From IMG/VR virus record IMGVR_UViG_3300044957_000346, positions 1-64,000 of that record: a stretch of DNA of 64,000 nt. One strand, 5' to 3'. Under the pieces are notes generated by a model. That model had not been told where the DNA came from and searched no databases. It worked only from the letters and a program-made list of their open reading frames with translations. Made by a program: the position numbers and the translations under genes. Position 1 is the stretch's first letter. Each line of letters opens with the position of its first letter. This document shows positions 3,241 through 17,643 of the stretch, piece after piece. The DNA comes from a virus.

Positions 3241-5280
3241 ATGTATCAAACTATCTTTATTTCTAAAAAAGACAATACTGTTCATCTATGGGACGATCAA
3301 AAAGGTTACATAAAGTTCCCATATCGACCATATGCTTATCGTAAGCGTACTGGTGGTATGTATCGCAGTATTTATGGAGATGAACTTGAAAAAGTTTATA
3401 AATTTAATCCCAAAGATCCTTCGCTATTTGAAAGTGACGTTCCAGACACCACACGCGTCTTGATCGACGCATATGAAGATAGTGACGAACCTTCTACGGG
3501 TCATAGGTTAGTTTATTACGATATCGAAGTAAGTACTGAAGGTGGGTTTCCAAAGGTTGATGAAGCTGATAAGGAAATTACAGCTATTGCTTTGTACGAT
3601 GCTACAACTGAACAATATACTGCATTTATTTTGGATAAGGATGATCGTCTACAAGAATACAAGAAGGATAATGTAGAAGTACGTAGTTTTACAAATGAAG
3701 AAAGTTTGTTGAGTCATTTTCTAACTAAATGGGAAGAGATACAACCAACTATTGCCACTGGATGGAATATTGATGAATTTGATACTCCTTATTTGTTTAA
3801 TAGAATTAAACGGGTATTTGATGATCGTGAAGCCAAAAGACTTTCTCCCATCAAAGTTTGTTATAGAAACGATTGGAGTAAAAAGATAGTTGTAGCTGGT
3901 ATATCATTTATTGACTACATGGTTTTGTACAAGAAGTGGAATATTAAACAAGAACCTAGTTATGCTTTGGGTGCGATTGGTAAGAAAGTTGTTGGGTTGG
4001 AGAAGATTACTTATAAAGGTAGTCTTGATGATTTGTATAAAGCTGATATCAATCGTTATATTGAATATAATCTCAATGACGTTAAAATTATTGTTGCGTT
4101 GGAAAAAAAGCTTCAGTTTATTGAACAAGTTAGGGCTATATGTCACAAAGGACACGTTCCGTATGATTGTTTTACGATGAGTTCACGTTTCATTGAAGGT
4201 GCAATTCTTATGTATCTTCGTCGTAAAGGACAAGTTGCTAAGAATAAGCCCGTAGATGGACGTGAAGAATATGAAAATCAGATGGAACAAGGCGAAGAAG
4301 GATTTGAAGGTGCTTATGTAAAAGATCCTGTGCCTGGCCGGTATGATTGGGTCTTTGACTTGGATCTTACTTCTATGTATCCAAATATTATTATTAGTTT
4401 GAATATTAGTCCCGAAACGAAAGTGGCAAAGGCTGAGAATTGGGATCCAGAAAAGTTTATAAAGAATGAAGTGGAAACTGTTCAAGTTGGTAGTGCTTCT
4501 TATACAAAAGACGAATTTAAACAGTTGCTTGAAAAATCACAGTATAGTATTGCTAGTAACGGTGTTATGTATAAACAAGATTATCAAGGCGTCATACCTG
4601 AAATTCTAGTCAAATGGTTCGATGAACGAAAAGAACTGCGAAAACAAGCCAAGAAACACGGTGATGCAAAAGAATGGGAAAAGTATGAGTTCTACGATCA
4701 AAGACAAAAAGTACAAAAAGTACTTCTCAATTCAATTTATGGTGTATTGGGTCTACCAATTTTCAGATTTTATGACAAGGATAATGCGAGCGCTGTTACT
4801 TTGACGGGTCAGGATATTATTAAAACTGCTAATAAAGCTATTAATCAGTATTATAAGAGAACTCTCAACGAGACTGAGAATAAAGATTATGTTATATATG
4901 TAGACACAGATTCAGTTGCGTCTGATAGCTTAGTTAAGACCGATTTATATGGTGATATTAAAATTTGTGATTTATTTAATAATCTTTCGATGAATAAAGA
5001 TGTTCAATATATTGAAGATATTCTTGGAAAAAAATTTATTTTTCCAAATAATTTGAAGATGCCTTATTACGATGAAACTGAAAAGATTGTAAAGTTTGGC
5101 AATGTAGATTATATAGAAAAACATAATGTTAAAAAAATTTCGTATAAAATTAAAACCAAAACTGGAAAAAGTATTATCGTTACTGAGGATCATTCGGTTA
5201 TGATTTTAGAAAATGACAAACTTGTTAAAAAACTTACAAAAGATTTAAAGAAAAACGATAAAATAATTTCGATTTGTTGA
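3241..5280 (+). CDS. polB: Family-B DNA polymerase N-terminal part (557 aa) fused to split-intein N-fragment (122 aa)
   Basis: ExoI YDIEV, ExoII GWNIDEFDTPY, ExoIII YNLND, motif A DLTSMYP, motif B KVLLNSIYG, motif C YVDTD followed by intein sequence; likely start ATG 3241. Confidence 0.95.
   Translation: MYQTIFISKKDNTVHLWDDQKGYIKFPYRPYAYRKRTGGMYRSIYGDELEKVYKFNPKDPSLFESDVPDTTRVLIDAYEDSDEPSTGHRLVYYDIEVSTEGGFPKVDEADKEITAIALYDATTEQYTAFILDKDDRLQEYKKDNVEVRSFTNEESLLSHFLTKWEEIQPTIATGWNIDEFDTPYLFNRIKRVFDDREAKRLSPIKVCYRNDWSKKIVVAGISFIDYMVLYKKWNIKQEPSYALGAIGKKVVGLEKITYKGSLDDLYKADINRYIEYNLNDVKIIVALEKKLQFIEQVRAICHKGHVPYDCFTMSSRFIEGAILMYLRRKGQVAKNKPVDGREEYENQMEQGEEGFEGAYVKDPVPGRYDWVFDLDLTSMYPNIIISLNISPETKVAKAENWDPEKFIKNEVETVQVGSASYTKDEFKQLLEKSQYSIASNGVMYKQDYQGVIPEILVKWFDERKELRKQAKKHGDAKEWEKYEFYDQRQKVQKVLLNSIYGVLGLPIFRFYDKDNASAVTLTGQDIIKTANKAINQYYKRTLNETENKDYVIYVDTDSVASDSLVKTDLYGDIKICDLFNNLSMNKDVQYIEDILGKKFIFPNNLKMPYYDETEKIVKFGNVDYIEKHNVKKISYKIKTKTGKSIIVTEDHSVMILENDKLVKKLTKDLKKNDKIISIC
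4912..5277 (+). mobile_element. Split intein N-fragment (Ser1) in PolB motif C
   Basis: Starts SVASDSLV right after YVDTD; block B VTEDHS; ends DLKKNDKIISIC*. Confidence 0.9.
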
Positions 5281-5326
5281 AAGATATCAATAAATTAATA
5301 AATGAAACTTTTGACTATCTCATAAA

Positions 5327-15908: not shown

Positions 15909-16937
15909 ATGCTAAGTCAACTAGAGAAAAATTAAAAAATGCAGCAATAAATCAAGGATTGGGAAAATATAAAATATATGAACGAGAAAATTATTGTGAT
16001 ACGGAAATTAAAAGTTTAGTAGAAAAGTATAAAAATTTGCCAAAATATACCGATATTTTTAATTCAACTATAACATATAAATCGGAACATATTTGGAGAA
16101 ACTCTATAATAAGAAAAATGGATATTTCTTCGTGTAATTTATTTTTCTATCTTTTAGAAGATAATATTCCCGATTGTAAGTATTGTAATATTAAATTATC
16201 AATTGATTCATATTCATATGGTGGGAAGGGTTTTTCATTTAAAGGATTTAAAAAATATTGTCTAATTTGTACAAATAATCAAAACTATAAAAGATATAAA
16301 CATTCTAAAGAATCAGTTTTAAAATTTAAAATTTCAAAATTAAAATGGACAAATTCAAAATCAGGAAAGTTATTTTATAAAAAACTCGGAAAACAAAATA
16401 GTATAGGTTTAAAAAAAATATTTTCAAACAGATCAGGGGCGTAATCAAATTGAAAAAACATCATTAAAACAATCAAAAATTTTAAAAGAAAAAATATTAA
16501 AGGGAGAATTTCATCCAAATATAACAAACAGTTGGACAAATTGGAATGCTATAATTACATTAGAAAATAAAATATATAAGTTTAGAAGTTCATGGGAAGC
16601 TTCATTTTTTGTTAGTAACACTCATTGTAAATATGAGTATATTAGGATACCATATATTGATAAACATGACAAAACTAAAACTTATATTGCGGATTTTTAT
16701 GATGAAAAAAACAAAATTTTATATGAACTAAAACCTAGATCCGTATTTAAAAAAGAAGTAGTAAAAATAAATCAAGTTATAGAATATTGCATAAAAAATG
16801 AAATAAAATTTATATGGTTGAATGAAAACAACATTCTAAATCATATTGACAAAAAAGATTTCTCGGATGATAATCTAAATCAATACAATAAAATGTTAGA
16901 GGGTATTTATGGTAAAAATAAAAATAAAATCAATTAA
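15907..16937 (+). pseudogene. Decayed TnsA-like PD-(D/E)XK homing endonuclease
   Basis: No clear ATG; frameshift in A-run near 16415; downstream frame reads FRSSWE..YEYIRIPY..YIADFY..ELKP..FIWLNE. Confidence 0.75.
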
Positions 16938-17643
16938 AAAATTGGAAGAAAAAATGCATGTATATGATTTATCAGTGGATGGAAATCATAACTTTTTCAT
17001 AGGAAACAAACCAACTTTAACATCAAATTGTGATTTTTTAACGACTGAAGCTCAGGCATCTCTTCGTAATTTGATGGAAACATATAGTCAAACTACGAGG
17101 TTTATTTTGACTTGTAATTATGTTGAGAAGATCATCAAGCCTCTTATTAGTCGTTGTCAAGTGTTTGATATTGAACCGCCTACTCCAAAGAATGTAGCGA
17201 TTCATATCAAGAATATCTTGGATAAAGAGAATATTAAGTACGAATTGCCATCTCTTAAGAACGTATTGGATGATTTTTATCCAGATGTACGGAAGATTAT
17301 CAACTTCGTACAACAGAATAGCACTAGTGGTACATTGAAGATTGTCAAAAATCAAAATGCAAGTTTTGATCTTAAAAACAAAATTATTGAACTTCTGAAG
17401 GGTTCAAAAACAAACTCAAGTGCGTTTAATGATATTCGACAACTTGTAAATGACGCGGGTGCAAAAGTATATGACGAACTGTATAGTGAATTGTATGTCA
17501 GAACAAAAGAATATGCTCCTAATAAAGAAACTTCAGTAATTATTGATATAGCAGAACATACTTATCAAAGTAGCATGGTTGTGGATAAAGAAATTACGTT
17601 CATGGCTTGTATTGCTAAATTGATAAAAACAATCGGTAAATGA
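16909..17643 (+). CDS. Clamp-loader ATPase piece 3: IntC-2 (40 aa) plus 204-aa C-extein
   Basis: MVKIKIKSIKK..VYDLSVDGNHNFF..TSN|CDFLT.EAQASLR..FILTCN..ISRC..DVRK. Confidence 0.92.
   Translation: MVKIKIKSIKKLEEKMHVYDLSVDGNHNFFIGNKPTLTSNCDFLTTEAQASLRNLMETYSQTTRFILTCNYVEKIIKPLISRCQVFDIEPPTPKNVAIHIKNILDKENIKYELPSLKNVLDDFYPDVRKIINFVQQNSTSGTLKIVKNQNASFDLKNKIIELLKGSKTNSSAFNDIRQLVNDAGAKVYDELYSELYVRTKEYAPNKETSVIIDIAEHTYQSSMVVDKEITFMACIAKLIKTIGK

Follow-up and report, generated by a model that had tools for sequence, protein, structure and literature searches.

In the fractured genes described by Dassa et al. 2009, the two halves of a split intein are encoded by neighbouring open reading frames (ORFs) of the same strand, separated by a free-standing endonuclease gene of HNH or Vsr-like type, the hosts are phage replication and nucleotide-metabolism proteins, and the halves carry opposite local charges; an allele without an endonuclease gene, gp41-7, is also known (PMC2677866). 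In the fractured-gene model the endonuclease region supplies a promoter, and the 2009 list includes no clamp loader among the hosts and no gene fractured twice (PMC2677866). Cysteine-less split inteins have been characterised in Aes123 PolB1, CP21 PolB1 and LCGC14 PolB2, the first of them as a trans-splicing intein (PMC11923092, PMC12707363). Here we analyse a 64-kilobase (kb) stretch of viral DNA (the window), the first 64 kb of the 74.4-kb IMG/VR record IMGVR_UViG_3300044957_000346, in which two genes of a single replication module, those for the DNA polymerase PolB and a gp44/RFC-like clamp-loader ATPase, are interrupted by three split-intein pairs, all on the same strand. The record, with an estimated completeness of 21% and a G+C content of about 29%, derives from an uncultured T4-like large phage, and its T4-like replication genes in the window encode PolB, a gp45-like clamp and the clamp loader. 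PolB is spread over two ORFs and the clamp loader over three, giving five polypeptides with three split inteins, and the stretch from PolB to the clamp loader spans 14.4 kb. The locus resembles the Dassa fractured genes in its hosts, in the opposite local charges of intein halves, in its neighbouring same-strand ORFs and in the free-standing HNH- and Vsr-like endonuclease genes that lie, on the same strand, between the halves of both clamp-loader inteins; the PolB halves, by contrast, are separated by a spacer of 46 nucleotides (nt). It departs from them in that one of its inteins is split in an atypical place and both endonuclease genes are frameshifted.

We propose that three independently acquired mobile intein elements broke two replication genes, so that PolB would be made as two polypeptides and the clamp loader as three, and that the class-1 split-intein halves at each break most likely associate and trans-splice to yield a PolB of 858 amino acids (aa) and a clamp loader of 318 aa. 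From the PolB intein (Ser1/Ser+1) the endonuclease gene would have been lost, clamp-loader intein 1 would owe its atypical split to an HNH endonuclease gene sitting after its 28th codon, and the DnaE-like clamp-loader intein 2 would be canonically split around a TnsA/Vsr-like endonuclease gene. Non-interference between the pairs would follow from their membership of different families, the opposite polarity of the two canonical pairs and the different place in the fold at which the third is cut. Taken as a whole (mobile inteins, five polypeptides and three trans-splicing, non-interfering pairs), we consider this explanation likely to be correct.

A split intein in the polymerase gene

The first PolB ORF (3193/3241–5280; plus strand, as are all the extein, intein and endonuclease features below) passes through polymerase motif C to YVDTD and then continues into an intein. 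Its N-extein (3193–4911; 573 aa from the first ATG, with an alternative start at 3241) matches phrog_262 and the Pfam DNA_pol_B and exonuclease domains, and is 87% identical to the uninterrupted PolB of the related locus L081. The N-terminal intein half (IntN; 4912–5277, 122 aa) begins with Ser1, has a K-H pair at residues 70–71 and a block B of VTEDH, and carries a net charge of +4, with +7 in its C-terminal half. After the 46-nt spacer (5281–5326), which is devoid of an endonuclease gene, the second ORF (5327–6310) opens with the C-terminal intein half (IntC; 5327–5452, 42 aa), which ends in LVHN before a Ser and has a net charge of −9, and continues as the 285-aa C-extein (5453–6310). The split site is thus DTD|S, with a Ser1/Ser+1 junction. 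In the protein collection, 19 relatives of this intein are 43–65% identical to it; all have Ser1 after DTD and all share VTxDHS with the upstream K-H pair, 16 of the 19 end at the same split point and the other three (P0022, P0029 and P0035) are contiguous.

The PolB intein is related to the cysteine-less split intein characterised in Aes123 PolB1. Both interrupt the PolB of a T4-like phage at DTD|S with a Ser1/Ser+1 junction, and both pair a basic IntN of about 120 aa with an acidic IntC of about 40 aa. The IntN halves are 33% and the IntC halves 55% identical, and the window IntN matches the Aes123 PolB1 intein structure (PDB 9hth) with E = 1.7e-8. The K-H pair upstream of block B also fits the Ser1-specific NX motif (PMC10189870). 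Unlike Aes123, which has a VSR endonuclease gene between the halves, the window intein is without an endonuclease gene, and the window PolB lacks the additional gp43A/gp43B split. In Aes123 itself (L241, JN377899) PolB lies in three genes, a non-intein split between gp43A and gp43B1 being combined with the split-intein fracture, and the VSR endonuclease gene in that fracture overlaps both neighbouring ORFs at its ends. In another related PolB, that of L146 (4567–5596), about 1 kb interrupts the polymerase domain at a different position, possibly a further intein or intron site.

Two split inteins in the clamp-loader gene

The clamp loader is encoded by ORFs at 13098–13370, 14389–15258 and 16909–17643, which together tile the clamp-loader profile phrog_168 (positions 4–55, 56 to about 108, and 109–307). 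The first extein (13098–13283, 62 aa; profile positions 4–55) ends in the P-loop at GTGK and is followed by the IntN of intein 1 (13284–13367), which begins with Cys1, has a net charge of −8 and, at 28 aa, is atypically short. The middle ORF has the layout IntC–extein–IntN. It opens with the 133-aa IntC of intein 1 (14389–14787), which contains a block B of CDENH and ends in ICHN before a Thr, and proceeds through the 52-aa second extein (14788–14943), running from that Thr to the Walker B motif ILDE (profile positions 56 to about 108), into the IntN of intein 2 (14944–15255). This last half (104 aa, Cys1, net charge −4) has a block B of CTLDH, a Pfam Intein_splicing match of 47 bits and a DnaE-intein-like sequence. 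The third ORF consists of the IntC of intein 2 (16909–17028, 40 aa, net charge +3), ending in LTSN before a Cys, and of the 204-aa third extein (17029–17643), which starts with that Cys and covers profile positions 109–307.

Intein 1 is split before block B, with an IntN of 28 aa against an IntC of 133 aa. In this layout it can be likened to atypically split inteins such as PolB16, with a 15-aa IntN and a long IntC carrying blocks B, F and G, from which it differs in its host site (the clamp-loader P-loop) and its Cys1/Thr+1 junction. What led to the atypical cut can be seen here. A contiguous allele (P0005), 97% identical, is without the 1,018-nt insert of the window, and the window TGA stop is a Cys codon in P0005, followed directly by the Met of the IntC. 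At the position after residue 28, two pairs of related loci (L242/L245 and L243/L244) carry an intact HNH endonuclease ORF of 320–325 aa, and because relatives carry intact endonuclease ORFs in that gap, the atypical cut coincides with the site of a free-standing endonuclease gene. Elsewhere the gap holds a larger HNH ORF (L247), a DUF559/Vsr-type ORF (L172) or an 11-nt spacer alone (L246). The insert is bordered by a direct repeat, AAATTGA (13362–13370 and 14380–14388), and between the IntN stop and the endonuclease start lies a perfect 11-bp inverted repeat, TATAGTTATGC / GCATAACTATA (13386–13396 / 13421–13431), with a 24-nt loop. Intein 1 has 13 relatives, 47–97% identical to it. A scan of viral contigs with the IntC as a single sequence gave no match, whereas alignment-based scans were successful.

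Intein 2 occurs at LDE|C in three states among its relatives: as a contiguous 147-aa mini-intein (L168), split with a 67-nt spacer (L162), and split around an endonuclease gene of 1–1.7 kb (L025, L027, L161, L163–171 and L243) whose product is Cys-rich and has a TnsA/Vsr-like PD-(D/E)xK domain. Its best PDB matches are DnaE inteins (1zd7 and 7qil), at a weak E of about 0.04. As in the cyanobacterial DnaE split inteins of Npu and Ssp, its IntN is acidic and its IntC basic; its similarity to them is weak, however, and it differs from them in sitting in another host protein and in having its halves 1.65 kb apart rather than at distant loci. Measured against L161, the intein is more conserved than its exteins. 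The absence of the usual penultimate His from the TSN terminus had been singled out in an earlier note on this DNA; the feature is present but is no oddity, since four of the 12 family members, including the window, end in TSN and the other eight in THN, which makes it a recurrent natural variant. DnaE inteins likewise lack the penultimate His and end in ASN.

Exact junctions

To place the junctions, we mapped the extein pieces of the window onto related IMG/VR loci. The two flanking pieces adjoin with a 0-nt gap in 80/80 relatives for PolB and, for the clamp loader, in 78/80 of one set and 68/80 of another. At 158 related loci with a 0-nt extein gap, removal of the intein restores the uninterrupted host protein, and the closest relative has uninterrupted genes whose lengths match the predicted products of 858 aa and 318 aa. 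The junctions read S..HN|S (PolB), C..HN|T (intein 1) and C..SN|C (intein 2), and each pair has its nucleophiles at positions 1 and +1, its terminal Asn and its block B His; the block B of the PolB intein (TEDH) and of intein 2 (TLDH) both follow TxxH. The Pfam intein-splicing profile matches all the intein fragments below its cut-off, because every fragment is only half an intein. All three inteins also have contiguous homologues (P0022, P0029 and P0035 for PolB, P0005 for intein 1 and L168 for intein 2). Exact junctions, class-1 residues and contiguous homologues together identify each pair as a class-1 split intein. The three pairs with junctions S/S, C/T and C/C that the earlier note had read within 14.4 kb thus hold to the residue, as do its two conventionally split pairs with IntC halves of 42 and 40 aa and the contrast between an acidic PolB IntC and a basic IntC of intein 2.

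Endonuclease genes between the halves

Between the halves of intein 1 lies the remnant of a free-standing HNH homing-endonuclease gene (13436–14301), recognised from the intact HNH ORFs of L242 and L243 and from a DNA alignment. Relative to L242 it has two 1-nt deletions in poly-A runs (at about 13715 and 14275) and a 9-nt duplication (14203), and its HNH motif is truncated after HLHHIDFDKK. Between the halves of intein 2, a second free-standing endonuclease gene (15959–16919), found by tblastn with the intact homologues of L025, L027 and L243, encodes a Cys-rich N-terminal part and a TnsA/Vsr-like PD-(D/E)xK C-terminal part (Pfam PF08722, a weak match); it is frameshifted in an A8 run at 16411–16418, and its 3′ end overlaps the start of the IntC. 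Beside it, inserted between the same halves, stands an FkbM-type methyltransferase-like ORF (15324–15908, plus strand; Pfam PF05050).

All three frameshifts fall in A6–A8 runs, affecting three of 23 homopolymer runs in the endonuclease genes and none of 45 in 14.7 kb of conserved ORFs (Fisher p about 0.035); this enrichment makes real, recent decay likelier than random sequencing error. The ratio of non-synonymous to synonymous substitution rates (dN/dS) of the HNH gene against L242 is 0.08–0.12, which indicates that it was functional until recently. We therefore rejected the idea that the endonuclease genes are long-dead pseudogenes; any decay must be recent. Very recent decay, poly-A sequencing error and slippage, including slippage-dependent expression, are all candidates for the origin of the frameshifts.

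Mobility and ancestry of the inteins

With pairwise identities of 29–35% in global alignment, the three inteins belong to three different families. Other phages have each of them by itself, inserted at the same site, and the families include contiguous, split-with-endonuclease and split-without-endonuclease forms. Intein 1 differs from its counterpart in L242 by 33 synonymous and 21 non-synonymous changes, and the resulting dN/dS of 0.11 indicates purifying selection. The element is 85–89% identical to that of L242, whereas the flanking exteins are 47–71% identical with saturated synonymous sites; the cassette is therefore younger than its host genes and has moved horizontally.

The closest sister (L001/L081), whose flanking genes are 83–93% identical at the amino acid level, lacks all three inteins, and its uninterrupted PolB, clamp and clamp-loader genes lie within 4.7 kb instead of 14.4 kb. 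This suggests that the inteins were acquired independently and that their co-residence is recent. Three-piece clamp loaders are also present in L243/L244 (from two metagenomes) and in P0007, P0010 and P0011, and the arrangement recurs in at least three lineages; other phages carry intein 1 only or intein 2 only. Clamp loaders with one or both inteins across phages argue that the inteins come and go independently.

Probable non-interference between the pairs

We consider it plausible that the three pairs do not interfere with one another and that this is probably their default state. Throughout the PolB intein family, including that of the Aeromonas phage Aes123, a basic IntN is combined with an acidic IntC. 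In the intein 2 family the IntN is acidic throughout and the N-terminal half of the IntC basic, also in members from phages with an uninterrupted PolB. Given these opposite polarities, non-cognate pairing of the canonical halves would bring like charges together. The 28-aa IntN of intein 1 and a 40-aa IntC are predicted to be unable to make a HINT domain, and the 133-aa IntC would overlap both IntN fragments of about 100 aa because each of these carries its own block B. The most dangerous pairing, which the earlier note had not considered, lies within the middle clamp-loader piece, where the IntC–extein–IntN layout means that a reaction between the piece's own intein halves would cyclise the 52-aa extein; the overlap of the two halves would protect it. 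In published matrices, distantly related split inteins were orthogonal in 15/16 cases (PMC7090010), LCGC14 and the Aes-derived CLm were orthogonal at 35% identity (PMC12707363), and PolB16 was orthogonal to Aes123/CL (PMC10189870).

That selection against polymerase/clamp-loader chimeras in the window phage made the set orthogonal, for example by evolving opposite charges, was the central claim of the earlier note, and it could draw on the opposite polarity of the PolB and intein 2 pairs and on the presence of all three inteins in one module. The same polarity, however, is common to relatives that lack the other inteins (Aes123 and the intein-2-only loci), and the family-wide charge data point to no changes specific to co-residence. 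With a sister phage free of all three inteins, which implies that they came together recently, with an intein 1 cassette that moved horizontally, and with unrelated inteins being orthogonal by default (PMC7090010, PMC12707363, PMC10189870), we judge such selection improbable. Separate families, solo occurrence, family-wide polarity and published default orthogonality mean that co-residence does not imply selection for orthogonality, and the window genome bears no sign of it in its sequence. The earlier note is therefore upheld in its observation of three genuine split pairs and, as an expectation, in its dependence on splicing; its selection-made orthogonality is not. Appreciable but tolerated cross-splicing, of the PolB IntN with the IntC of intein 2, in the reverse combination or as cyclisation of the middle piece, would be conceivable for two canonically split HINT domains with common block F and G motifs, and the few cross-reactions in PMC7090010 came from short fragments of atypically split inteins. 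Like charges on non-cognate partners, the pairwise identity of 29–35% and the block B in both the IntC of intein 1 and the IntN of intein 2, which leaves no single HINT fold, make it very unlikely.

Probable dependence of the replisome on trans-splicing

No second PolB or clamp-loader gene was found in the 74-kb record, and from this we infer, with good support, that replisome assembly would depend on three trans-splicing events, as the earlier note had suggested. That the replisome needs three non-interfering reactions, one of them belonging to a naturally occurring tandem trans-splicing that builds an essential ATPase from three pieces, seems to us slightly likelier to be right than wrong. 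A scan for sigma-70 promoters gave 130 matches against a shuffled expectation of 97, barely above it. Two promoter-like sites, each an 11-of-12 match, stand upstream of the middle and the C-terminal clamp-loader pieces; they are consistent with a promoter being provided by the endonuclease region, as the fractured-gene model has it, but do not prove it.

Several points weigh against our proposal of three active, non-interfering trans-splicing pairs. We infer expression, splicing activity and orthogonality from sequence. The record amounts to about 21% of the genome, so that an intact second copy could lie elsewhere, and there is no obvious Shine–Dalgarno sequence before either the C-terminal PolB piece or the middle clamp-loader piece. 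In intein 1 the block B reads DENH, with Asp replacing the Thr of TxxH, although this is invariant across the family, and the IntC of intein 2 lacks the penultimate His, again a conserved variant within its family. An AlphaFold2 model of P0005 places the cut after residue 28 in a loop past the first helix, with low confidence (mean predicted local distance difference test score, pLDDT, 62.7); Foldseek with this weak model returned matches to the RFC extein part only.

On such grounds at least one intein might no longer splice, the pieces either assembling non-covalently through the intein halves or belonging to a dead gene. The TSN terminus and the unusual block B of intein 1 would fit this, and there is a precedent in a fragmented phage NrdA whose pieces assemble without being spliced (PMC3045599). 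All nucleophiles and terminal Asn residues are nevertheless intact, TSN recurs in a third of its family, intein 1 evolves at a dN/dS of 0.11, and a failure to splice would leave an intein within the P-loop, the Walker B motif or polymerase motif C; we regard loss of splicing as unlikely. The poly-A position of the three endonuclease frameshifts could also point to an artefact of assembly or sequencing, but an identical middle clamp-loader piece is present on five contigs, the same layouts occur in independent metagenomes, and the 45 homopolymer runs of the conserved ORFs contain no frameshift, which reduces this to a negligible probability. Mobile inteins with three trans-splicing, non-interfering pairs remain our preferred explanation.

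Neighbouring genes and further inteins

Counting contiguous inteins in NifU/IscU-like and DUF5661 ORFs along with the three split pairs, the 64-kb window holds at least six. The 812-aa NifU/IscU-like ORF (37726–40164, minus strand) contains two contiguous inteins, one with an HNH domain and the other with weak Hint_2/Vint matches, and in the DUF5661 protein (31605–33425, plus strand) a contiguous intein takes up approximately residues 177–399. Between PolB and the clamp, a block of about 5.5 kb (6311–11880) is without counterpart in the closest relative L001/L081. Its genes encode an N6/N4 DNA methylase, a truncated clamp copy and sugar- or nucleotide-modification-like products (HAD with nucleotidyltransferase-like, and methyltransferase-like). 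The truncated copy, a 188-aa ORF (7473–8039), corresponds to the N-terminal part of the gp45-like clamp gene (12354–13091), to which it is 54% identical, and is joined to a duplicate of the final 29 or so PolB residues, the presumed clamp-binding tail.

Significance

The clamp-loader arrangement has engineered counterparts in tandem protein trans-splicing and in libraries of orthogonal inteins (PMC12707363, PMC7090010), in which a protein is made in three segments, the middle one has the layout IntC–extein–IntN and two orthogonal inteins are needed. The window system differs from those in being natural; its host is an essential phage ATPase, and it is present in several lineages. Our literature search found no description of a natural assembly of one protein from three genes by two split inteins, although the search was poor and is no proof of absence. 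The two inteins share hot-spots of the AAA+ module with contiguous inteins of cells; those of the window are phage-borne and split.

Split inteins are heavily used in protein engineering, where orthogonal, cysteine-less and short-IntN variants are especially sought, and the locus would offer one of each, side by side, if active. Were all three inteins active, they would form a naturally co-resident orthogonal set, in which the cysteine-less intein has a Ser/Ser junction, the one with the 28-aa IntN a Cys/Thr junction and the DnaE-like one a Cys/Cys junction. The claim of an evolved orthogonality adds little to this, as unrelated inteins are orthogonal anyway. For the biology of these elements, the relatives display all the stages, beginning with a whole intein, continuing with split inteins that have a live endonuclease gene and ending with those that have lost it, and they show how an atypical split site arises when an endonuclease gene lands early in an intein gene. 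Taken together, the locus indicates that essential phage replication proteins can withstand division into five polypeptides by selfish elements.

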